From a virus (lineage: Duplodnaviria; Caudoviricetes), in the IMG/VR virus record IMGVR_UViG_3300038393_002693, positions 1 to 24,491 of that record: DNA of 24,491 nt, one strand, 5' to 3'. The notes under the pieces are model-generated. The model had not been told where the DNA came from. It did not search any database and saw nothing but the letters and a program-made list of their open reading frames with translations. Each line of letters begins with the position of its first letter. The first letter of the stretch is position 1. Made by a program: the position numbers and the translations under genes. Positions 1-24,491 of this stretch are shown here, piece by piece.

Positions 1-356
1 TGTTTGCGTCTCTTGAGGGTATACTTCCCATCCTTTTTTAGACGGGCACGGAGATGCCGTAGTACGGTGGCGGTGTCCTCCATCTCGGTCAGCCCTAGGA
101 TTTCTCCGCTGGTCAGGCCATTGGGGGCTTCCAGGAGGGCGATGATCACGTCATCGAGCTGTCGCTGGATTTTGTCGAACTGGTGCTGTCTCTCGTCGTT
201 GACTCTCTTGGCCTCCTGGGCTCGCTGGACCATGGAGGCGATCAGCTGTTTCTTATCCTCAGGGATGGTAGATAATTGTGGCGTGAGGACTTGCGGGTTC
301 TCGCTCAGCTCTACGGTTACGACTACGTCTGGAATTACTAGGTCATCCGGTGTCAT
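1..356 (-). CDS. Hypothetical protein, possible coiled coil plus winged-HTH; runs off the left edge
   Basis: Not in the ORF track. Hand translation from the ATG at 356 is open to the edge: MTPDDLVIPDVVVTVELSENPQ...QLDDVIIALLEAPNGLTSGEILGLTEMEDTATVLRHLRARLKKDGKYTLKRRK. The 'LLEAPNGLTSGEI' segment resembles a wHTH. Alternative ATG at 233. Confidence 0.6.
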   Translation of the reverse strand, partial: MTPDDLVIPDVVVTVELSENPQVLTPQLSTIPEDKKQLIASMVQRAQEAKRVNDERQHQFDKIQRQLDDVIIALLEAPNGLTSGEILGLTEMEDTATVLRHLRARLKKDGKYTLKRRK

Positions 357-357
357 T

Positions 358-1239
358 ATGAAGTCCTGCGTGTTCAGCGGTTCCACTGAAAATCTCAACA
401 CTTCCATGAACATCCGCCTGGAGGACGGCCAGGTCGTGGAAGTCTGGATCTCCGATCAATACGCCGATGATGCTACTCCCCGGGCAGTTAGGGAAGCATA
501 CCAGAAGCGGCAGCAGCAGGAAATGCAGAGCAGCGAAAAGTGGCTGCAACTCCAGAAACTCGCCAAGGAGCTTGGCCTGGAGCTACCGATGCCCGGCCAG
601 GCTCCGGCTTCCCCAGCTCCGATCGCCAACCCAACTCCTGCCGCTCCAGTGGCCCAGGCCCTCCCCAAGCGGAATACATTCAACAGCAAGCCAATCCTGG
701 AGAGTAACGACCCTAACGTCAGGGTGGTGGACGGTCGCACAGCAGATACCAAGATGGCCCAAGTCAACATTAATAATACTGCACCATCCCAGCTTGGGGT
801 TGGCGGCTTGAGCAATCAGTACGCTATTCGATCGATCTGCATGGCCTGCAACGGCACTGGCGAAACCCGGGGAGGCCAGCCCTGCCCACGCTGCGAGGGC
901 ACGGGTGGCGACAACGCTAAGGATTTGAAGGATGGCGAAGTAGCTTCAATCGAGCGGGTCAAGGGACGCAATGGCCTGGAGATCGCTATTCCGACCAAGC
1001 GTGTCGGCAAGATGGGGACTACCACTGTGCGGGTCGTCGATAATGGCGGCGACCGCAACCTACAGGATCGCTTCAAGAGCATGGCTCATGCGTCGATGGG
1101 TGGGCAGGCACCAGACTTCCGTAATGGCTACGACGCTCGCTTCGTGCAGTGCGGAATGTGCCACGGTAAGGGCATAACCATGGGCCAGACCTGCCCCAAG
1201 TGCGGTGGTGCTGGGGAATTCCAGCACAGCAATTTCTAA
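358..1239 (+). CDS. Protein with four DnaJ-type CxxCxGxG zinc-finger repeats and no J domain
   Basis: CMACNGTG, CPRCEGTG, CGMCHGKG, CPKCGGAG. The first 118 codons of track ORF 4..1239 are the antisense shadow of the minus-strand gene, so the start is moved to ATG 358. Confidence 0.75.
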   Translation: MKSCVFSGSTENLNTSMNIRLEDGQVVEVWISDQYADDATPRAVREAYQKRQQQEMQSSEKWLQLQKLAKELGLELPMPGQAPASPAPIANPTPAAPVAQALPKRNTFNSKPILESNDPNVRVVDGRTADTKMAQVNINNTAPSQLGVGGLSNQYAIRSICMACNGTGETRGGQPCPRCEGTGGDNAKDLKDGEVASIERVKGRNGLEIAIPTKRVGKMGTTTVRVVDNGGDRNLQDRFKSMAHASMGGQAPDFRNGYDARFVQCGMCHGKGITMGQTCPKCGGAGEFQHSNF

Positions 1240-8113: not shown

Positions 8114-9325
8114 ATGCAGCTGGTCTGTACACTGTTCGACCCCAACCGCGACGGACGCCCCCTGATGACCGGGGTGCTAGCCAACGGGAAGGTTGACTTT
8201 CACTCCTACTACCTGCCTAAAACGGGCAAGAGCATCTACGAGATCGAGCAGGGCCTTGCCGCTCTCAGCCATCAAGTAGAGGGGGACGTGCTGCTGAACG
8301 ACTACAAGCGGCACCTGATCGGATTTAACTTCAACCCCAGCGGCAGGGTCTACGACGCCCCAATAGAACTACCGCCAGACCCAGACCCTCGTAAAGCGGT
8401 AGCGCGAGGGCTGTTGGAGATGAAGAAGTGCCTGGAGGGTGGCAAGGCCCCAGAATGGATGAGAATAAGGGCGGAAGCGGCTATAGTCTACAAGTACCTG
8501 CAGGACAAGGGAGTGCTGCTCAATTACGAGCACGTGCACCCGCAATGGCACCTTGACGTGTTCTCTGGCCGCTCTCGGGCGGCGGTAGTGGGCGTTCAGG
8601 GGGCTACCCCAGAGGATCTGCTGTGTAACGTCAACGGGGACTCGATCTACATCAACTTCGACTTCGTCTCGGCTGATCTGCGGGCGGCGGCGATCATGAG
8701 CGGGGACCCGGTGCTGGAAGAGAGTTTCTGCTCTGATCCCTACAGCTATCTGGCTGAGATTATTAACCGCGACATTCGACCGGGGCAAGATCCGCTTAGC
8801 CGCGATGAGGCCAAGCTAGGATTATTCCAGCCTTTCTATGCCCTGGACGCCGATAGCGACATCCTGGCAGTTTACCCAACTCTACGGGACTGGATGGCTG
8901 GCTGCAAGGAACAGCTGGAACGGGACAAGTATCTGGTGAGTGCTCTGGGGCGTAAGTTTTATCTCTCGGAACGACGTGACGCAAAGTCGGTCTTCAATGC
9001 TACTCTCCAGGGGACGGTGGCTCACGCCATGCAGGCTTCGATCCGGCGTGTCTGGGACAAATTCCCGGATAATATTCTCTTGGAGAATCATGACTCCCTG
9101 GTGATGACGGCCAAGGATGCTGATCATGCCAAGAGGATTATTAATACTGTGGTACCAATAATGGTGCAGCCTTTCCGTGGCCTGCTGCCTTCCAATCCTA
9201 CTTTCCCAGTGGCGGTGAGCATTGGGGCGGGCTATAAGAAGTGGAAGCAGTATAAGCGGTATGATGCTGCACCGGTGGTGCAGAGCCGGGCGGCGGCCTG
9301 GTTGGCGGGAGGCTCCCATGCCTGA
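8114..9325 (+). CDS. Short family A DNA polymerase-like protein (palm and fingers; thumb apparently deleted)
   Basis: SGRS (cf. TGRLS), motif A DFVSADLR, SGDPVL, motif B RDEAKLGLF...Y, SALGRK, FNATLQGTVAH, motif C ENHDSL; only 403 aa. Confidence 0.88.
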   Translation: MQLVCTLFDPNRDGRPLMTGVLANGKVDFHSYYLPKTGKSIYEIEQGLAALSHQVEGDVLLNDYKRHLIGFNFNPSGRVYDAPIELPPDPDPRKAVARGLLEMKKCLEGGKAPEWMRIRAEAAIVYKYLQDKGVLLNYEHVHPQWHLDVFSGRSRAAVVGVQGATPEDLLCNVNGDSIYINFDFVSADLRAAAIMSGDPVLEESFCSDPYSYLAEIINRDIRPGQDPLSRDEAKLGLFQPFYALDADSDILAVYPTLRDWMAGCKEQLERDKYLVSALGRKFYLSERRDAKSVFNATLQGTVAHAMQASIRRVWDKFPDNILLENHDSLVMTAKDADHAKRIINTVVPIMVQPFRGLLPSNPTFPVAVSIGAGYKKWKQYKRYDAAPVVQSRAAAWLAGGSHA

Positions 9326-14537: not shown

Positions 14538-15072
14538 GATTGAACCCTTCGCGGTGCCACAGCTGCTCCGCTACCCCACAACGCCTATCCTGGATAAGCA
14601 ATCACCACTGGCCGGATTGTTCTGCTACATTATTGCCCCCTATTCCCCAGGGGTTGCAATAGTAATTCGCAGGGAGAAAGGGAATGTCGGCATCCGGCTC
14701 GGCGACTGGTACGGACAGGAATTATCCGAAGCTCGGCGAGCTGAAGAGACTGCGAAATTGGTCAAGCCCCTGAGCGTGCTCACCGGCATCTTGCAGACTA
14801 TCGGCCTGGCCCAGGCACAGTTCTTCTTCGCCCAGGATGGCAGGCTGGTAGACATGCAGACCTCCCTCAATAAGATGGTGGGTCCTGGTATGCTCCGCGA
14901 CCTGTTCTCCAATACCCTGCCGGTCCAGCAAGTCCTGGAGATCAATCACTTGACTCCTGAGAAGATCGACGCACTTTATGCCACGGACTTGACCAACGGC
15001 GCAGTAATCAAGCCCGCCCGCCCCCGCTGTACCGATGGCGGCGTGCTAATGTATGCTCGGGTGATCAGATGA
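14413..15072 (+). CDS. Hypothetical protein, possibly a degenerate ATP-dependent ligase (nucleotidyltransferase) fold
   Basis: RYPTTPIL, LVDM and NGAVIKP fall in ligase-like order, but there is no KxDG. Start is uncertain (alternative GTG 14554). Confidence 0.55.
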   Translation: MAKSKAKTQSASTTAKSSGQSRAPTVSSSKKQAPPPQSGISRIEPFAVPQLLRYPTTPILDKQSPLAGLFCYIIAPYSPGVAIVIRREKGNVGIRLGDWYGQELSEARRAEETAKLVKPLSVLTGILQTIGLAQAQFFFAQDGRLVDMQTSLNKMVGPGMLRDLFSNTLPVQQVLEINHLTPEKIDALYATDLTNGAVIKPARPRCTDGGVLMYARVIR

Positions 15073-15941
15073 CTCATCTGGACTTCGCCACCACTGCCGT
15101 CTGCCGACCCCAGATCCTTGACCGCACCTATAGCTCATTCCTGGGGCAACTAAAGGGGGACTGGCGTCCCGGCACACTCTACATCAACATCGATCCGCTT
15201 CCAGAGAAAGCCGACCCCACCGCCACCATCGAGGTAGCCAGGAAGCATTTCCCGCAAGTCTTAGTTAATACTCCTGCCAGGTCATCGTTCCCGTCCGCCG
15301 TCAAATGGTGCTGGGGCCAGCCGCAGACCGATTACTTTTTCTACTTGGAAGATGATTGGGATCTCACCCAGGAGGTCCAGGTAGACAAACTATTGGAATT
15401 GTTGCGACAGAACGAGAAATTGGCCTGCATCAATCTGCGAGCTTATCCGATTCGCGATGAACGCATTTGCCTGTCTCCGGGCTTATGGCGTTCCAGTGCC
15501 GCCCGCGTTCTGGCGGAGCGTCTGACTTTGGATGCCAATCCGGAGAAGCAACTTCGCCCTACTAGCCCTACCAACCCTATTGGGGACCGCCACCTGGGCT
15601 TCCTGGGCCGCCAGTTCCCCGACGATTATAGGGCCAAGATGATTCGGGATAGTGGGCGGGAATGGCTCGCGACCCAGTCGGAGTATGAGAAGGATGGGGG
15701 AATCCATTTCACAACCTGGAAGCCCCGCGATCCGGTGGTGACACGACCGGGCAAGGCTATCACCAAGCCACATACCCCTCCGGTAGCTCATTTTCCCCGC
15801 CCGCCTCAGATTCCGGTCCAGACTCGCCGCCAACCCCAGCTGGCTACTCGCAAATCTGCTGCCCCGCCTTCGAGCGTTATTCCCGTAAAGAACGTAATCA
15901 AGCTGATCGCCAAACCCCTGAGCCCCAGGAGGCCCAAGTGA
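15069..15941 (+). CDS. GT-A fold glycosyltransferase with Pro/Lys-rich tail
   Basis: TTAVCRPQILDRTYSSF, YINID, DYFFYLEDDW (acidic metal-binding motif); ATGA overlap. Confidence 0.78.
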   Translation: MTHLDFATTAVCRPQILDRTYSSFLGQLKGDWRPGTLYINIDPLPEKADPTATIEVARKHFPQVLVNTPARSSFPSAVKWCWGQPQTDYFFYLEDDWDLTQEVQVDKLLELLRQNEKLACINLRAYPIRDERICLSPGLWRSSAARVLAERLTLDANPEKQLRPTSPTNPIGDRHLGFLGRQFPDDYRAKMIRDSGREWLATQSEYEKDGGIHFTTWKPRDPVVTRPGKAITKPHTPPVAHFPRPPQIPVQTRRQPQLATRKSAAPPSSVIPVKNVIKLIAKPLSPRRPK

Positions 15942-16780
15942 CTCAGATCGTAATGGTCCGGAAGTTCTGCCAAGAAGTTCTTGCTGCCAATAGTCTGATT
16001 ACCTTGGATTCTGACTGGATAGGGTGGATAGCCAAGGAAGTGGCCGAGATGGGAAAGTGCACCTTCCCGTCTCCCAATATCAATGGGAACATCCTGAAGG
16101 GCGTGGACCTGGTTGCCTACGAATTGATGGCCTCGGCAGTCAATTATGCCTATTGGTATGGTCATCCGGAGCTTCGCCCAGGGGGAGCTAATGCCTTTGG
16201 GATGTATCGCCTGCTGAGTGATTCCTATTCTTCTGACTGGGCTAGGACTTGTGATCGTTTCTCCCGGGCCATGATCAAGCAAGGCTATCCTTTTGCCGAT
16301 CGCCGTGCTGCCCACCTGGCGGAGCTGGCTCCCCTCCTCCAAGATCTGGCCGATCAAGTCCACGGTTGCCAGTCGGCTAGCGATGCCATCGAGGTTATCG
16401 TGGAGAATGTGCCGGGGTTTGCGGGGGACGTCTTCCGCAAGCGGGCTTTCTTGTGCGTGATGCAATTGCATCGGCAGGACGGGCGATGGGCTGATAGTAT
16501 TGGGGCGGTACCGATTCCGGCTGACTATCAGGTCCCTAAGATGCTGCGGTACCTGCAAGCTTTCCATTACTCTCCGGATCTGGCTCGCCTGGTGGACACC
16601 TATAAGCTCATCGCTTCGGGGTCGTTGGAGGAGTGTGCGATTCGGGCTGCCAGTATTGTGGCCTGCGACCGGATTGGCCAGCTCTCGGGGCGGACCACGT
16701 CAGACGTGGACTACTTCTTGTGGACCCGCCGCAAGGAGGTTAAGGGGCCTTTCCATTTGACTATCACTACTGACTACTAG
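15938..16780 (+). CDS. Queuosine salvage N-glycosylase homolog (Qng1 / DUF2419)
   Basis: AVNYAYW, PGF.GD.FRKRAFL, PADYQVPKMLR, GS.EECAIRAASI, VDYFLW, terminal PFHLTITTDY. Confidence 0.9.
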   Translation: MTQIVMVRKFCQEVLAANSLITLDSDWIGWIAKEVAEMGKCTFPSPNINGNILKGVDLVAYELMASAVNYAYWYGHPELRPGGANAFGMYRLLSDSYSSDWARTCDRFSRAMIKQGYPFADRRAAHLAELAPLLQDLADQVHGCQSASDAIEVIVENVPGFAGDVFRKRAFLCVMQLHRQDGRWADSIGAVPIPADYQVPKMLRYLQAFHYSPDLARLVDTYKLIASGSLEECAIRAASIVACDRIGQLSGRTTSDVDYFLWTRRKEVKGPFHLTITTDY

Positions 16781-18702: not shown

Positions 18703-18927
18703 GTGCCGCTAACCAACCCAAAGTTGCTGGCCAAGCTCAACCGAAAGTTGGGCGAGGCGGACAAAACCTGGACTCCCCTGGAACAGGCCACGCCCGAGCG
18801 GCTGGCCCAGTTCGTCAAGATCTATACCACCATCTTGCAGCACATCCAGGACCCGGTTCAGCGAGCCCGCTGCCAGGCCATGCTCCAAGCTATCCGAAAG
18901 CTGCAGAACGGGCAGCAAGCTTCATAG
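18703..18927 (+). CDS. Small helical hypothetical protein
   Basis: GGAGGG SD, GTG start, 74 aa. Confidence 0.7.
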   Translation: MPLTNPKLLAKLNRKLGEADKTWTPLEQATPERLAQFVKIYTTILQHIQDPVQRARCQAMLQAIRKLQNGQQAS

Positions 18928-18934
18928 AAGACCA

Positions 18935-18967
18935 CTCCTGGCGTAAATAAATCACCTACGTCAGGAG
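18935..18967 (+). promoter_or_regulatory. RBS-sequestering hairpin overlapping a GTAAATA promoter-like motif
   Basis: CTCCTGGCGTA (18935-45) pairs with TACGTCAGGAG (18957-67), which contains the SD; GTAAATA at 18943-49. Confidence 0.7.
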
Positions 18968-18972
18968 AGACT

Positions 18973-21522
18973 TTGCTCGCATCTATCATCATTCCCACCT
19001 ATAATCACTTTGAAGACTGCCTGCGTCCCTGCCTGGAATCGGTGGTAAAATACACTGATCTGTCCCAGGTCGAAGTCATCGTGGTTGGAAATGGCTGCAC
19101 TGATGGGACTGCATCGTACATGGCTGAGCTGACCAAGCGTCAGAATGTCCGATACTTGAGCTTCCCTGACCCGCTTGGCTATCCCAAGGCGACAAACGCC
19201 GGGCTGAAAGTTGCCCAGGGCAAATACATCGTCTTCCTCAACAATGATACCGAGCTAAAGGAGCAGCCGACCAACCAATGGCTACAACTCCTGATCGATC
19301 CCATGGAGGCAGATCAGAGCATCGGGATCACCGGCCCCATGGTCACCCAGAGCCCGGAAACCGGCGAGAATTTCACCATCTTCTTCTGTGCCTGCACTCG
19401 TGCTGTCTCAATCAAGCAACACGGCCTGCTTGACGAGGGTTATTCGCCCGGCTGGGGTGAAGACGTGGACTTCTGCATGCACATCCTGCGGGGCGGGCAG
19501 AAAGTCGTCCAGGTGCCGCTGGGAGCCAATTCCTATTATCCTGAGCCCAAGTACATGGTCGGTGAATTCCCCATCTGGCACAAGGGCACCCAAACCTTCC
19601 GCGAGGTGCCCAACGGAGACGCTCTGCTGCGGCGGAACCGTAGCCGCTTAAGGGAGAAGTGGGCCAAGAAAGTCAAGCTCAACCTGGGCTGCGGGGACCA
19701 GAAGATCGATGGCTACATTGGGGTGGACCTCTATAACCCCAATGCCGATCTCAAATTAGACATCTGTGACCTGTCACAATTCCAGGACAACAGCGTCGAT
19801 GAAATCCTGGCGGTGCACGTCCTGGAGCACCTCAACCCCTACAACATCAATCAGATCCTGGCGGAGTGGTATCGGGTGCTCAAGCCCCTGGGCAAGCTGG
19901 TTCTAGAGCTTCCCGACATCGAGGGGTTGTGCCGAGCCTTCATGGAGTCTGACAAAGGCCAGCGTTACCATCTGATCAACTGTATCTATGGGACTGGCAC
20001 CCTTGGGCAGCCTAGCTTTACTCCGCACCTGTTCGGCTGGTATTACGAGATCCTGCACGACCACCTGGCTCCCCTGGGCTTCGGCAACATTAGCAAGCAA
20101 GAGCCCCAGTTTGATCATTGGGGCGTCAACTTCCGTCTGGAAGCTCACAAGATGCCCCAGGGGTTCTTCTCGGAACTCAATGGCATCGTTTATCGCCAGA
20201 TGGTAGAACGGATGCCCGATAACGGCACGCTGGTGGAGCTTGGAACCTGGAAGGGCCGCAGTCTCGCTTACGTGGCCGACCTGGTGAAGAGCAAGAACTT
20301 GCGGGTGCTGGCGGTAGACACGTTTGGCGGTACCCCCGGGGACCCCTTCCATGAGAGCGTTAAATGGGAGAACATCCGCCAGATCTTCGATACCAACATT
20401 CGCCTGATGGGCCTGGAGAACCATGTAGATACCCTACAAGGGATGACGGTGGAGATGGCCAAGTCAGTGCCAGATGGCTCTGTTGACCTGGTCTTCGTCG
20501 ACGCCGACCACTCCTATGAGGCAGTTCGCGACGATATCGCGGCCTGGCGGCCCAAGCTTACCCCAAAGGGTGAGATGTGCGGGCATGACTATGTCGAGCA
20601 TTGTGGCGTGCCCAGGGCAGTCCAGGAGGCATTTGGGACGAACCACTCTCACCAGTGGGACGTGTGGTTCGCCCACGAGGCAGCGATTGCTATGCCCGAG
20701 CCCGCGATCCAGGCTTACCCCAAAACTAGCATTAGGGTAATCAACCGGGAACGCAAGGTCTTTGACTGTTTCCCGTTCTTCAATGAGATCGAGCTGCTTG
20801 AGATCCGCCTCAATGAGCTGAAGGATGAGGTCGATTTCTTTGTCCTGGTCGAGGCGACTGTCACCCACAGCGGTCTGCCCAAGCCCGCTTATTATGCCAA
20901 GCACAAGCACTTGCTGCCCCGCGAACTGACTGACAAGATCGTCCACGTGGTGGCCCCGCTTCCTGATTCCGCTGACCCCTGGGTGCGCGAGAGGGCACAG
21001 CGGGACGCGATTTTGGATGCCCTGGCGGGCCGGGCCAACGACAAGGATATAGTAATCATCTCCGATGCCGATGAAATTCCTTCGGCAAAGGCTGTACGCT
21101 CCTATAACCCAGAGCTTGGCATGTGCCAGCTTGACATGAAATTGTACTACTACTACCTGAATCTACAGGGTGGCGTACACTGGGGGCACGGAAAGATCAT
21201 GCTCTATGAGATGCTCAAGAGCATCACTCCGACTGACGCTAGGTACTACCAGTGCCCATGGTTAGCTGACGGTGGATGGCACTTCTCGTATCAGGGAGGT
21301 GTCGCCAAGATCATCCAGAAGATCGAGAGCTGGGGCCACCAGGAGTATAATACTCCTGAAAACAAGGACCCAGCTCGTATTGAGCGGGCAATCCTGGATG
21401 GAGTGGATCTCTTCGGGCGGAATGATCGCTATGACCTGGTGGATCTGGGTGCCCTCCCGCAATACGTACAGCGGCACGCCTCTGACCTGGTCAATAAGGG
21501 TCTGATTCTATGGAAAAACTGA
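18973..21522 (+). CDS. Four-domain fusion: GT2 glycosyltransferase, two SAM methyltransferases and a GT17-like glycosyltransferase
   Basis: SIIIPTYN / VFLNNDT / GEDVDFC (GT2); LNLGCG...HVLEH...RVLKP.G (class I MTase); VELGTWKGRS...VFVDADHSYE...GHDY (Methyltransf_24-like); DCFPFFNEIELLEIRL...SDADEIP...GGWHFSY (GT17). TTG start, AGGAG SD. Confidence 0.9.
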   Translation: MLASIIIPTYNHFEDCLRPCLESVVKYTDLSQVEVIVVGNGCTDGTASYMAELTKRQNVRYLSFPDPLGYPKATNAGLKVAQGKYIVFLNNDTELKEQPTNQWLQLLIDPMEADQSIGITGPMVTQSPETGENFTIFFCACTRAVSIKQHGLLDEGYSPGWGEDVDFCMHILRGGQKVVQVPLGANSYYPEPKYMVGEFPIWHKGTQTFREVPNGDALLRRNRSRLREKWAKKVKLNLGCGDQKIDGYIGVDLYNPNADLKLDICDLSQFQDNSVDEILAVHVLEHLNPYNINQILAEWYRVLKPLGKLVLELPDIEGLCRAFMESDKGQRYHLINCIYGTGTLGQPSFTPHLFGWYYEILHDHLAPLGFGNISKQEPQFDHWGVNFRLEAHKMPQGFFSELNGIVYRQMVERMPDNGTLVELGTWKGRSLAYVADLVKSKNLRVLAVDTFGGTPGDPFHESVKWENIRQIFDTNIRLMGLENHVDTLQGMTVEMAKSVPDGSVDLVFVDADHSYEAVRDDIAAWRPKLTPKGEMCGHDYVEHCGVPRAVQEAFGTNHSHQWDVWFAHEAAIAMPEPAIQAYPKTSIRVINRERKVFDCFPFFNEIELLEIRLNELKDEVDFFVLVEATVTHSGLPKPAYYAKHKHLLPRELTDKIVHVVAPLPDSADPWVRERAQRDAILDALAGRANDKDIVIISDADEIPSAKAVRSYNPELGMCQLDMKLYYYYLNLQGGVHWGHGKIMLYEMLKSITPTDARYYQCPWLADGGWHFSYQGGVAKIIQKIESWGHQEYNTPENKDPARIERAILDGVDLFGRNDRYDLVDLGALPQYVQRHASDLVNKGLILWKN

Positions 21523-22556
21523 CCGTAACTGCTACGATCTCTACTAAGGATCGTTACTTTACTACTCTCCCTTCAGCGATCATGGCGATCGTGGGGCAGA
21601 CTTATCGCCCGTCTAAGCTGATCATCTTCGACGATGGCGAGCACCGCGACCTGCGGGAAGAGCCTCTGTACAAGAACATCTTCGCAGCCATGGCCCTCAA
21701 GGGGATTGAGAGTTGGGTGGAATTCAGCCCGCGTGCCGGGCAGGTACGAAATCACCAGCGAGCAATCTCGCTAGCCCAGACTGACTTGATCTGGAGGGTA
21801 GACGACGATAACGTCCCGGAGCCCCAGACGCTTGAAAAACTAGTCGGCTGCCTGCAATCCGATCCCAAGATTGGTGCGGTGGGCGGTAGGATTATTATTC
21901 CTTCTATGGGGGTAATTTCGGCAGCCGTCAGCTCCAGCCGAATCGAGGATTTGTTTCAGCTGCCCAATCTGCAGTGGAGCGACCATAACGAGGAGTGCGA
22001 GGTTGATCACCTCCATAATTCTTTCCTCTATCGCAAGGAGGCAGCCAAGCACGGCTACTGCATGGAGCTGTCCCCGGTTGGTCACTGCGAGGAGACCCTC
22101 TTTACCTATGAGATGAAGCGCGCGGGCTGGAAGATCATGTTCTGCCCTACTGCCCTCAGTTGGCACATGCGTTATCCGGACGGCGGAATTCGCTCTTATC
22201 AGCAGCACGAATACTGGCAGAGGGACCACCATCTGGCGATGCTGAAGTTTAGTCAATGGGGAGTGCGGTTTAACCAGACCAAACTCTTCGTGCTCGATAA
22301 CGGCATTGGGGATCATTTCATGTTCAAGATGGCTTGGCCCAGGATCAAGGCCAAGTTCCGCCAGCACAGGATGTTCTTGGCCTGCTGTTATCCTCAGATT
22401 TTTGCGGATGAGAAGGACGCCCAGATTATTAGCATTGCCGAGGCAACCCAGATCGATGGGGAGCTTGGTAAGTACAATGTCTATGAGTGGGCGGCAGCCC
22501 GCAACTGGGACAAGAGCCTGGTAAAAGCCTTCGAAGCGATGCATCTGGGAGAATAA
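21510..22556 (+). CDS. GT2 glycosyltransferase fused to a GT9-like N-terminal half domain
   Basis: TISTKDRY, IIFDDG, WRVDDD (DxD), HCEET; C-terminal LDNGIGDHFMF resembles the GT9 N-lobe 'GIGD' motif. Confidence 0.85.
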   Translation: MEKLTVTATISTKDRYFTTLPSAIMAIVGQTYRPSKLIIFDDGEHRDLREEPLYKNIFAAMALKGIESWVEFSPRAGQVRNHQRAISLAQTDLIWRVDDDNVPEPQTLEKLVGCLQSDPKIGAVGGRIIIPSMGVISAAVSSSRIEDLFQLPNLQWSDHNEECEVDHLHNSFLYRKEAAKHGYCMELSPVGHCEETLFTYEMKRAGWKIMFCPTALSWHMRYPDGGIRSYQQHEYWQRDHHLAMLKFSQWGVRFNQTKLFVLDNGIGDHFMFKMAWPRIKAKFRQHRMFLACCYPQIFADEKDAQIISIAEATQIDGELGKYNVYEWAAARNWDKSLVKAFEAMHLGE

Positions 22557-22557
22557 T

Positions 22558-23040
22558 ATGAGCCAGCCCCTGGTCTTAATCAGCCCCTTCTCAAGCAAGC
22601 GGCGGAACGGAAAGCCCAATGCCAAAAATTACCCCTGGTGGCCAGAAGTAGTGAAGGGTCTGCGAGCAGCTGGCGTGCGTACTGTCCAGATTGGGGTTGA
22701 GGGAGAAGAGGAGATCGGGGCAGACGATCGCAAGGTCGGCCTATCCTTCGACCAGTTACGCCAGCTTCTGGATGCCGTTGATGGCTGGGTGGCAGTAGAC
22801 AACTTTTTCCCGCATTTTGCGGCCTACCACGGGCGTGGTGGTGTGGCGATCTTTGCTGTCTCGGACCCCAATCTTTTTGGACACACTATCAACACTAACT
22901 TATTGAAGGACCGCAAATTCCTGCGACGAGACCAGTATAATAATTGGCAGGAAATTGAACTTAATGCCGACGCCTTCATCCCTCCCCAGGAAGTGGTTCA
23001 GAAAGTTCTGAGTCGTCTACCTTCTTCTCTTGCGGCCTAG
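22558..23040 (+). CDS. GT9 (heptosyltransferase-like, GT-B) C-terminal half domain
   Basis: VLISPFS...KNYPWW, VQIG...E, LS..QL..LL, VAVDNF..HFAA..G, IFAVSDP..FG. Confidence 0.8.
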   Translation: MSQPLVLISPFSSKRRNGKPNAKNYPWWPEVVKGLRAAGVRTVQIGVEGEEEIGADDRKVGLSFDQLRQLLDAVDGWVAVDNFFPHFAAYHGRGGVAIFAVSDPNLFGHTINTNLLKDRKFLRRDQYNNWQEIELNADAFIPPQEVVQKVLSRLPSSLAA

Positions 23041-23360
23041 CCATTGATAATTGTGGGGGCGGCACCATTCTGGACGGGTAGGTTGCGGGCTTCGGTGGTG
23101 CCCAGGCTGCGCGTGCTGGTCACGGCCTTGTTCGTCGTGGCTTTCTCTTGCTTTCCCGTGCCGCTTTTGCGTTTGAAAGCTGCCCCGAGATTCGGCACGA
23201 CTTTAGGCTTTCTCGTGACCTCGACGGTGGGCTCACGCCGCTGGGGTGTGGCGGGACGGCTTCCTTTATAGGATGCCGCTGCTTTCTGGAGTTGGGCGGC
23301 CATGCGGGGAGCTTGTGTGATGCTGATGCTCTTGGAGGCGGTGGGCCGTTCGTTGTTCAT
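23037..23360 (-). CDS. Basic, low-complexity hypothetical protein
   Basis: 107 aa, K/R/T/A-rich; shares the CTAG stop palindrome with the convergent gene; CAAAGGTAGCTC motif directly before its ATG. Confidence 0.65.
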   Translation of the reverse strand: MNNERPTASKSISITQAPRMAAQLQKAAASYKGSRPATPQRREPTVEVTRKPKVVPNLGAAFKRKSGTGKQEKATTNKAVTSTRSLGTTEARNLPVQNGAAPTIING

Positions 23361-23372
23361 GAGCTACCTTTG
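23361..23372 (-). promoter_or_regulatory. CAAA-NN-TA class promoter-like motif
   Basis: Minus strand CAAAGGTAGCTC-ATG, same 12-nt offset as at 3890 and 16795. Confidence 0.5.
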
Positions 23373-23436
23373 ATCCTGGTTTGGATAATCTTATCTACCG
23401 CTCCTTACTCATCTACTAGTCAAAAATGTAGTAATC

Positions 23437-24491
23437 ATGGGCGCAAATCGCATCATTGATCAGATGAGCCAGTTGGCGGATGTAAACATTAATAATCCGC
23501 AAGCCGGTCAAGTTCTGATCTTCGACAACCAGGGCAAGGTCATCAATCAGTCCCTTGAGCTGATGGCTGGATATTCTGGTTATTCTGGCCAAAGCGGATA
23601 CTCGGGCTACTCTGGCTTGGGAGTCTCGGGGTACAGTGGCTACAGCGGCTTGGGCTCTTCAGGGTATAGTGGTTACTCGGGAGATTCCGGGCGTAGCGGA
23701 TATTCTGGCTATAGCGGCTCGGGTGTCTCCGGGTACTCTGGGTACAGCGGCTCTGGAGTTTCCGGTTATAGCGGTCAGTCTGGGTACAGTGGCTCTGGGG
23801 TCTCCGGGTATAGCGGCTATTCGGGGAATTCCGGGTATAGTGGTTATTCTGGTTCAGGTGTCTCTGGCTATTCTGGCTACAGCGGTTCGGGGGTCTCAGG
23901 GTATAGCGGCTATTCCGGCTCAGGTGTTTCCGGATATAGCGGATATTCTGGCTCTGGTCTTTCGGGGTATAGTGGTTACTCGGGGTCAGGGATTTCGGGG
24001 TATTCAGGTTATTCCGGGTCGGGGGTCTCCGGTTACTCCGGGTATTCCGGCTCGGGTGTGTCCGGGTACAGTGGCTACAGCGGTTCAGGAGTTTCCGGGT
24101 ATAGTGGTTATTCTGGGTCAGGGATTTCGGGGTACTCTGGTTATTCGGGGTCGGGGGTCTCCGGATATAGCGGCTATTCCGGCTCGGGGGTTTCCGGGTA
24201 CAGTGGTTACTCTGGCTCTGGGATCTCCGGCTACTCTGGTTACTCGGGGAAGAGTGGGTATAGTGGCTATTCCGGTCAGAGTGGCTATTCCGGGTACTCT
24301 GGCTCCGGTGTCTCAGGTTACAGCGGCTATTCTGGCTTAGGTCTTTCTGGCTATAGTGGATACTCTGGTCAGAGCGGATACAGTGGGTATTCCGGCCTGC
24401 CTGGCGACAAGTACGCCACTTCTTCTACTACGAGCAATACTAATAGTTTAGGGGCTCACACCTTCACGGTTGCTGCGGGCCTGGCCTATAC
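23437..24491 (+). CDS. Ser/Gly/Tyr collagen-like fibre protein; runs off the right edge
   Basis: Not in the ORF track. Hand translation: MGANRIIDQMSQLADVNINNPQAGQVLIFDNQGKVINQSLELMA-(GYS...)-LPGDKYATSSTTSNTNSLGAHTFTVAAGLAY. The L.DV...P..GQVL motif is typical of phage fibre proteins. Confidence 0.88.
   Translation, partial: MGANRIIDQMSQLADVNINNPQAGQVLIFDNQGKVINQSLELMAGYSGYSGQSGYSGYSGLGVSGYSGYSGLGSSGYSGYSGDSGRSGYSGYSGSGVSGYSGYSGSGVSGYSGQSGYSGSGVSGYSGYSGNSGYSGYSGSGVSGYSGYSGSGVSGYSGYSGSGVSGYSGYSGSGLSGYSGYSGSGISGYSGYSGSGVSGYSGYSGSGVSGYSGYSGSGVSGYSGYSGSGISGYSGYSGSGVSGYSGYSGSGVSGYSGYSGSGISGYSGYSGKSGYSGYSGQSGYSGYSGSGVSGYSGYSGLGLSGYSGYSGQSGYSGYSGLPGDKYATSSTTSNTNSLGAHTFTVAAGLAY
23569..24396 (+). repeat. 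Coding tandem repeat, about 276 codons, dominant unit SGYSGYSGSGV (33 nt)
   Basis: Protein-level repeat with heavy synonymous variation; variants include SGQ, SGN, SGD, SGR, SGK, LGV, SGI. Confidence 0.95.

Follow-up and report, generated by a model that had tools for sequence, protein, structure and literature searches.

The serine-rich repeat adhesins, such as GspB, Fap1 and SraP, come with the glycosyltransferases (GTs) GtfA and GtfB, an accessory Sec system and a wall anchor. Aah and TibC heptosylate protein serines and share conserved iron-binding cysteines; WaaC and WaaF are heptosyltransferases of lipopolysaccharide (LPS); and the GtrABC-type systems of serotype conversion combine a membrane flippase with a polytopic transferase. 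In C. difficile the GT2-TPR protein SgtA, whose gene lies directly upstream of bclA3, adds O-GlcNAc to the threonines of a Gly-Pro-Thr repeat and also accepts serine in peptides, as stated in the available part of PMC7157674. Among tailed phages, virion glycosylation has so far been reported for a few mycobacteriophages, and GTs encoded beside the tail fibres of aquatic phages are usually read as modifiers of host LPS or DNA: the accessible sections of PMC7029224 and PMC12801897 take the GTs of pelagimyophages and cyanomyophages as modifiers of the host O-chain or of DNA. Here we describe a cassette of GT and methyltransferase genes next to a gene for a serine-rich, collagen-like repeat protein in IMG/VR virus record IMGVR_UViG_3300038393_002693, the whole of which, 24,491 nucleotides (nt) long, is called the window below. 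We propose that the enzymes of this cassette quite probably O-glycosylate the serines of the Gly-X-Ser repeat in what is likely a virion tail fibre. What this sequence-based reading draws on was observed directly: which genes are present, what domains they encode, how the residues of the repeat are arranged and how cassette and repeat occur together.

The conserved core of the cassette is encoded by two plus-strand genes. The first (21510-22556) specifies a protein of 348 amino acids (aa) in which a GT2 domain (aa 1-255; 21510-22274), the candidate priming transferase, is fused to a 93-aa GT9-like N-lobe (22275-22556) with a G-I/L-G-D-H motif, here GIGDH; the second (22558-23040) encodes the GT9-like C-lobe as a separate 160-aa protein. 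The GT2 domain is recovered by Pfam (E 7e-11) and has a DxD-type motif, RVDDD, at aa 96-100; across 25 aligned members of the core family RxDDD, EE, H and GGxR are invariant. The AlphaFold2 model of this domain (predicted local distance difference test, pLDDT, 95) matches GT-A folds, and the N-lobe forms a separate alpha/beta domain in the model of the whole protein; the fold searches covered the GT2 domain and barely sampled the N-lobe. The best VIA match of the GT2 model is ppGalNAc-T1 (Z score 19.6, root-mean-square deviation 3.5, 240 aligned residues); as this is practically a tie with three unrelated GT-A enzymes (all within 1 Z of it), the match does not identify the acceptor.

Against the Pfam GT9 profile (PF01075) the C-lobe reaches 19.6 bits (E 6e-4), below the cut-off of 22. 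Its family profile retrieves the heptosyltransferase WaaC at E 1e-4 to 9e-6 and, weakly and over the C-lobe portion only, TibC at E 0.6-1.5. A profile search returned 546 C-lobe representatives at E<=1e-10, and 10 of 150 listed representatives carry both GT9 lobes in one chain. Natural fusions take the form of a GT2-N-C chain (P0004) and of a stand-alone 252-aa protein (P0033), which in the Atlas adjoins a viral GT9 cluster (score 0.97) with PF01075 in 57% of its members. Because such fusions of N- and C-lobe exist, the split is taken to be real: the GT9-like enzyme of the window is, by its sequence features, divided over two genes with both GT-B Rossmann lobes present. The longer relatives of the C-lobe were found by profile search and not by a word-index search, and single-sequence PDB searches with the C-lobe and with P0033 gave nothing significant. 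No cysteine is invariant in the C-lobe alignment; one is near-invariant in that of the N-lobe.

Upstream of this core lies the accessory, variable part of the cassette, a soluble 849-aa polyprotein (18973-21522, plus strand) that combines GT2 (aa 4-133, E 1e-23), Methyltransf_11 of the class I S-adenosylmethionine-dependent type (aa 260-311, E 2e-10) and Methyltransf_24 (aa 421-540, E 8e-21), all above the Pfam cut-offs, with GT17 (PF04724; aa 591-815, E 4e-29, 102 bits against a cut-off of 26), the last match covering profile positions 70-299 of 348. The two GT2 domains of the window score 84 and 43 bits against PF00535 (cut-off 23.3), and no NCBIfam equivalog reached its cut-off for the window GT2 proteins; the GT2 domain of the polyprotein (GT2a) matches CgT (PDB 5HEA) at E 4e-9, a generic GT2 match. 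The four GT modules (GT2, GT17-like, GT2 and split GT9) and two methyltransferases that a first-pass annotation had listed are thus confirmed by open reading frames (ORFs), Pfam and profiles. A hydropathy scan detects no membrane segment in the cassette enzymes, the maximum 19-residue hydropathy being 0.86-1.52 across the three proteins and 0.96 in the polyprotein.

The candidate fibre is encoded at 23437-24491 (plus strand), where the N-terminal 351 aa of the protein are present and the reading frame is open at the contig end. A 43-aa N-terminal module is followed by the predicted glycan acceptor, a Gly-X-Ser repeat (aa 44-320; 23566-24396), and by the start of a spacer domain with a GDKYxT motif. 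The repeat beside the cassette had been recognised as serine-rich and about 276 residues long; it measures 277, with 99 Gly, 96 Ser, 52 Tyr, 51 SGY, 3 charged residues and zero Pro, and its main unit is the 11-mer SGYSGYSGSGV. All six serine codons are used (69 TCN and 27 AGY), and hence the repetition is at the protein level and no simple DNA expansion. Read as Gly-X-Y, the window copy has serine at Y in 79 of 80 triplets. Across the fibres of 18 cassette-linked loci (2,944 triplets) serine occupies 91.5% of the Y positions, while X is Tyr in 38%, Ile in 18%, Phe in 16% and Thr in 8%. Since Y is held as serine and X varies, serine is the conserved hydroxyl, with tyrosine acting as a bulky residue; the suggestion that tyrosine offers an additional hydroxyl acceptor is not supported by these frequencies.

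The available text of PMC11923368 defines collagen-like sequences by at least six contiguous Gly-X-Y triplets. The repeat family appears collagen-like, the window copy being the most interrupted one measured: it has 19 Gly-X-Gly breaks in its 80 triplets (23.8 per 100, against 6.1 per 100 in the relatives) and five runs of 6-10 in-register glycines, with most runs at 4, and the cassette-linked relatives have a median run of 7 triplets and a longest run of 230. The absence of Pro from the postulated triple helix holds, but at this density of breaks a continuous helix in the window copy is unsupported. A polyproline-II bundle in place of a collagen helix was considered for the 11-residue period, in view of the accessible part of bioRxiv 2023.11.25.568672; the long uninterrupted runs of some relatives speak for a collagen-like family instead. 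In the same portion of PMC11923368, KGE/KGD triplets are said to stabilise bacterial and viral collagens, and the view is stated that threonine at the Y position of collagens is explained by glycosylation. The window repeat has neither proline nor KGE/KGD triplets. Separately, cysteine-rich variants of the repeat occur, with Gly-Cys-Ser triplets in G005 (C1:44852-47091) and cysteine for serine in P0155; disulfide cross-links or S-glycosylation are possible in these.

That the window protein is a virion tail fibre is likely, judging from its relatives. Its own PHROG match to tail fibres (E 2e-4) is probably repeat-driven. The N-terminal module is shared with the SGY protein of L468, encoded directly after a GT9 C-lobe gene (E 0.001), and the spacer motif is common to the fibre of L022 (E 0.003), the tip of which matches tail-fibre phrog_11355. 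Of 12 SGY protein fragments scanned, 3 have a tail-fibre tip family or a Peptidase_S74 chaperone at their end, and S74 chaperones are typical of trimeric fibres. A single-chain AlphaFold2 model of the fibre (pLDDT 32) is not usable.

To relate repeats to enzymes, IMG/VR was scanned for three repeat patterns; the forward counts are among the matches listed, from loci of at least 3 kb, with 170 pattern loci under 3 kb and near-identical duplicates dropped. Loci of the first pattern were sorted into 32 of Ser-type (distinct viral loci encoding SGYSGYSG) and 24 of Thr-type, and 2 encoding neither repeat were dropped. The GT9 halves, which stand for the core of GT2 and split GT9, are present in 17 of the 32 Ser-type loci but in none of 24 Thr-Gly-Tyr (TGY), none of 65 GATGPT and none of 71 GPKGDK (GPK) loci, zeros that apply to this enzyme family only, the profiles having been built from the window domains. 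Three more Ser-type loci give partial evidence: L075 has a part-cassette at the contig end, and L037 and L054 have the C-lobe elsewhere on the contig. When control contigs were searched whole for the C-lobe, none was found (0 of 5 GPK, 0 of 4 GATGPT and 0 of 3 TGY); one of three large control contigs, 24% complete, has 4 SGY pattern matches without a cassette.

A broader GT/methyltransferase cluster occurs in 25 of 58 first-pattern, 19 of 65 GATGPT and 3 of 71 GPKGDK loci. It appears, then, that hydroxyl-rich repeats attract GT-type genes in general, with the enzyme family differing with the residue. A GT2-TPR family is found in 13 of 65 GATGPT, 3 of 24 TGY and 2 of 71 GPK loci, and is absent from the 32 SGY loci and from the 52 cassette loci described below. 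Thus, there is a double dissociation: Ser repeats go with GT2/split-GT9 and Thr-type repeats with the SgtA-like GT2-TPR. That the enzyme family changes with the hydroxyl residue in the adjoining repeat points to the fibre as the substrate. The GT2-TPR proteins are roughly 355 aa long (L326:4997-6064, L328:4683-5741, L340:1853-2914, L354:10777-11910 and others), and in some phages the gene stands directly beside that of a Thr-type collagen repeat protein. By analogy, GT2-TPR and Thr-type repeat together are a candidate second fibre-glycosylation system.

The converse comparison started from the best 80 of 580 confirmed viral C-lobe matches, which gave 52 distinct loci. The GT2 domain of the 348-aa type (GT2b) with its N-lobe accompanies the C-lobe in 49 of the 52. 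An SGY gene is present in 27 of the 52, and in 18 of the 22 that are flanked by 2 kb or more on each side; in the 27 linked loci it lies within 300 nt of a cassette gene in 16 and on the same strand in 26. Ten exception contigs were searched whole. SGY repeats turned up elsewhere on 5 of them, among which are all 3 contigs with a completeness of 90% or more; in one case the repeats are about 250 kb from the cassette. Hence, the link survives the loss of physical linkage. The co-occurrence of SGY fibres and these GTs, put forward earlier as the test of the proposal, therefore holds in both directions and against controls. It would be very surprising if these genes merely travelled with the fibre as a mobile block acting elsewhere, or if the glycosylated SGY protein were no part of the virion. 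Close spacing in 16 of 27 linked cases could on its own preserve such a block, and the virion role of the window protein is drawn from relatives alone; the far-apart co-occurrence of cassette and repeat in 3 of 3 near-complete exceptions speaks against the first variant, and the tail-fibre tips and S74 chaperones at the ends of SGY proteins against the second.

Cassette and SGY repeats are found together in quite different contexts, namely T4-like neck genes, tail sheath genes, the capsid block of small phages, siphovirus tail genes and contigs of 370-494 kb; a quick tree was used to show this spread only, not donors. It is unlikely that the cassette glycosylates other or many virion proteins, such as capsid and tail tube, with the SGY fibre as one acceptor or none. 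Such an arrangement would resemble the capsid and tail tube glycosylation reported in mycobacteriophages (PMC11256854 and PMC12619734, in the parts available), and the cassette does sometimes lie apart from the SGY gene, among neck, sheath or other genes (L014, L021, L455, L482). However, the neighbouring structural modules differ completely between the phages, and the SGY repeat is the shared element.

The pairing is also found in a cultured phage. Among 50,697 annotated phage records searched with the 348-aa protein and the C-lobe, the 348-aa protein matches one record, the siphovirus Methylophilaceae phage P19250A (KX815270.1), with 37% identity over 97%, and the C-lobe matches the gene adjacent to the 348-aa homologue. 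In this genome (L523, 21390-27040) gp23 is followed by gp24, a methyltransferase, gp25, a GT2-GT9N fusion, and gp26, the GT9 C-lobe (GT9C). The last three are annotated as hypothetical and stand at the end of the tail genes; gp23 is an SGY repeat protein of 1,201 aa that has been wrongly labelled a tape measure. The earlier claim that the cassette serves the fibre also holds in this cultured instance, and the three-gene version of P19250A makes the question of fibre glycosylation directly testable. Weak C-lobe matches (E 2e-3) were also seen in the Pelagibacter phages HTVC111P and HTVC112P (MN698245.1, MN698246.1), where the genes are annotated as putative glycosyl transferases.

P19250A further bears on a possible role of the enzymes in DNA hypermodification, by which the phage DNA would carry methylated glycans; to this reading we give hardly any weight. 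DNA-hypermodifying phage GTs are known, going by the title of a cited reference, and upstream of the window cassette is a replication region that includes genes for a dCMP deaminase and a further GT-A protein and a gene of the queuosine-salvage family. In its annotation, and in Pfam scans that covered 37 of the 58 genes, P19250A shows no DNA polymerase of its own, no integrase and no base-modifying enzyme, neither hydroxymethylase nor dioxygenase, and across loci it is fibre genes that the cassette follows and not nucleotide genes.

A further alternative is a role at the host surface, in which the enzymes would remodel LPS core, O-antigen or exopolysaccharide and block superinfection; their place beside the fibre would then reflect the joint swapping of receptor-binding and receptor-masking genes. 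This is the published reading for GTs beside pelagimyophage tail fibres (PMC7029224, in its accessible sections); GT9 is typically an LPS heptosyltransferase family, WaaC is the best structural hit, and HldE/HldD-like genes and Rml genes each occur in 1 of 52 loci. We nevertheless consider it improbable: it leaves unexplained why the enzyme family follows the serine or threonine hydroxyl, the enzymes have no membrane segments, the P19250A annotation has no integrase, and a single cassette is kept across very different phages whose hosts would be expected to differ in their surface glycans.

Glycosylation of the SGY fibre is our preferred reading, and several points weigh against it beside the restricted reach of the control zeros. 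No cassette is seen at 12 of the 32 SGY loci; 8 of these contigs, all 5-52% complete, were searched whole without a match, and the other 4 were not searched. Conversely, 5 of the 10 exception contigs (10-77% complete) have a cassette and no SGY repeat. The loci are related and the scans are samples, and the counts are not independent events; since the loci are related, Fisher values overstate the evidence. The GT9 part is closer to the LPS enzyme WaaC (E 9e-6) than to the protein heptosyltransferase TibC (E 0.6), and L462, the sole locus with ADP-heptose synthesis genes, lies on a contig (25% complete) in which no SGY repeat is seen. In the window itself the fibre's own tip is missing at the contig end, and an opposite-strand gene (23037-23360, minus strand) stands between cassette and fibre. 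This small gene had been noted, and its minus-strand orientation is a refinement: the codon score is 0.07 on that strand against -0.20 for both plus-strand frames, and its basic 107-aa product exactly matches a called protein. The product is an orphan, with no Pfam, PHROG or NCBIfam match and no counterpart in the related loci searched, and the gene is probably an insertion. All told, the proposal of the first-pass annotation that the phage glycosylates its own fibres stands as regards the link between cassette and fibre; the glycosylation itself and the presence of the protein in the virion are interpretive.

What we infer beyond these observations is the acceptor, the donor, the order of steps, the virion location and the purpose. 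In the mechanism envisaged, the GT2 and GT9 pair, one chain in some phages and two in the window, would build a core of about two sugars on the Y-position serine in the host cytoplasm. Priming by GT2b followed by extension by GT9 is slightly favoured because of the SgtA precedent. In TibC a GT9-type enzyme acts as the primer, and that order would be almost as likely here. ADP-heptose is a possible donor for GT9; the hints as to donors come from single loci, the HldE/HldD-like genes of L462 and the Rml genes of L001. Extension and methyl-capping of the glycan, differing from lineage to lineage, would fall to the variable domains (GT2, GT17 and methyltransferase) of the 849-aa protein. The glycan would take the place of the hydroxyproline or salt bridges of other collagens and keep a Pro-free, charge-poor and aromatic-rich stalk folded, soluble and shielded from proteases. 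A bolder version is possible but doubtful in our estimation: a widespread, virus-specific O-glycosylation in which GT2/split-GT9 would install a heptose-containing, methyl-capped glycan on the Y serine, letting a Pro-free, charge-free Gly-Tyr-Ser collagen fold by a third route besides hydroxyproline and salt bridges, with the enzyme family matched to the residue and the glycan diversified by modular GT polyproteins that reach 2,400 aa.

The domains outside the core are patchily distributed, with GT2a in 35, MT1 in 12, MT2 in 5 and GT17 in 4 of the 52 cassette loci. The GT17 enzyme of animals, MGAT3, adds the bisecting GlcNAc to N-glycans, and is the source of the idea that the phage glycan is branched; with GT17 an accessory in so few loci, a branched glycan is unsupported. 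Some loci encode assembly-line-like GT polyproteins of 1,800-2,400 aa (L001:4022-16414, L004:7907-15037, L008:6530-11896) in which as many as five GT2, three GT17 and three methyltransferase domains are combined. The L001 cassette, the only one of the 52 with Rml genes, encloses RmlA/B/D-like genes and a LAGLIDADG gene, and that of L004 a CmcI-type O-methyltransferase gene. HldE/HldD-like genes abut the cassette in one of 52 loci, L462 (1760-3954), where genes resembling the HldE adenylyltransferase, HldE kinase, a cupin and HldD are directly upstream, all of the ADP-heptose pathway genes being below equivalog cut-offs. An estimated 1,200 or so stored IMG/VR stretches match the cassette patterns. 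A scan of 185,579 prokaryote genomes gave only 11 matches, every one in an assembly derived from a metagenome and several with phage-like genes around them; one of the cassettes (L441:7630-10462) sits among phage-like genes in a 4.5-Mb metagenome-assembled chromosome, possibly in a prophage, and about 9 kb from it lies an ORF with a Ser/Thr-Gly repeat.

The left part of the window is a large-phage replication block by Pfam and PHROG, with genes for RecA, a DnaB-like helicase, dCMP deaminase, a family A polymerase-like protein, UvsY, a gp32-like single-stranded-DNA-binding protein, a 5'-3' exonuclease and a PD-(D/E)XK resolvase. The combination of a short family A polymerase-like protein (8114-9325, plus strand; merely 403 aa) with T4-type gp32 and UvsY and a bacterial-type RecA is unusual. 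DnaB has at best 26-30% identity to cultured phages, and the phage group and host are not assignable from it. A protein with DnaJ-type CXXCXGXG zinc-finger repeats is encoded at 232-1239 (plus strand), its true start uncertain because an opposite-strand ORF (3-413, minus strand) overlaps. A fifth GT-like gene, absent from the first-pass annotation, lies at 15069-15941 (plus strand); it has no Pfam match, and the Atlas feature and structure neighbours of its product are viral and GT2-like. It is overlapped by a queuosine-salvage-family gene (15938-16780, plus strand; PF10343, E 1e-15). Since both are missing from the fibre and cassette loci in the forward comparison, the two are probably a module separate from the cassette. 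A promoter and terminator scan of the window stayed at chance level. One contig of run X1, a possible source of the DNA, spans 18801-24491 with zero differences, and run X2 matches short pieces of the GT genes only. The run in which all sampled words of the window occur is a soil metagenome, which may be where the DNA comes from, and no RNA run was listed as containing the window.

If the fibre is indeed the substrate, many environmental phages would have fibres with a dense cover of glycans, which would bear on adsorption, stability and grazing, and the cassettes would hold a new set of soluble protein O-glycosyltransferases. Outside subscription papers and supplements, a literature search returned no description of the SGY fibre family or of the cassette. 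The GTs of pelagimyophage and cyanomyophage host-recognition clusters are alike in lying beside tail fibre genes of aquatic phages; the available portions of PMC7029224 and PMC12801897 draw no link to a repeat acceptor or to the GT2/split-GT9 family. The GtrABC type differs in its membrane flippase and polytopic transferase, of which the cassette proteins, with a maximum 19-residue hydropathy of 0.86-1.52, have no equivalent. The serine-rich adhesins share a dense Ser repeat next to priming and extending GTs, but their repeat is Ser-X and not Gly-X-Ser; no GtfA/GtfB or accessory Sec match was obtained by Pfam and NCBIfam among the window ORFs scanned, and the fibre C-terminus, where a wall anchor would lie, is missing. 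With the GT9 heptosyltransferases, both WaaC/WaaF and Aah/TibC, the cassette shares the similarity of the GT-B C-lobe and, in one locus, ADP-heptose genes beside it; it differs in an enzyme of about 250 aa that is usually split, with the N-lobe fused to GT2, that falls far below curated cut-offs and whose C-lobe is without invariant cysteines.

In the mycobacteriophages (Che8 and relatives), too, phage GTs modify the phage's own particle. There, however, the acceptors are capsid and tail tube subunits, whereas the window has a dedicated repeat with about 96 predicted sites in the sequenced part, and the GT2b and GT9C queries found no mycobacteriophage match among the 50,697 phage records. The closest likeness is to SgtA/BclA3 and to BclA of Bacillus anthracis, in which the gene of a soluble GT-A enzyme lies next to a collagen-like gene with a hydroxy residue at the Y position. 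The phage GT2-TPR proteins are likened to SgtA by architecture, without alignment to SgtA itself. The window differs from SgtA/BclA3 in a repeat of Gly-Tyr/Ile/Phe-Ser instead of Gly-Pro-Thr, in a phage fibre instead of a spore coat, and in GTs without TPR, with GT2 and split GT9-like, GT17-like and methyltransferase domains instead. By this analogy the cassette would work most like SgtA/BclA3, yet it stands outside that system in having no TPR and in a repeat with serine, not threonine, at the Y position.

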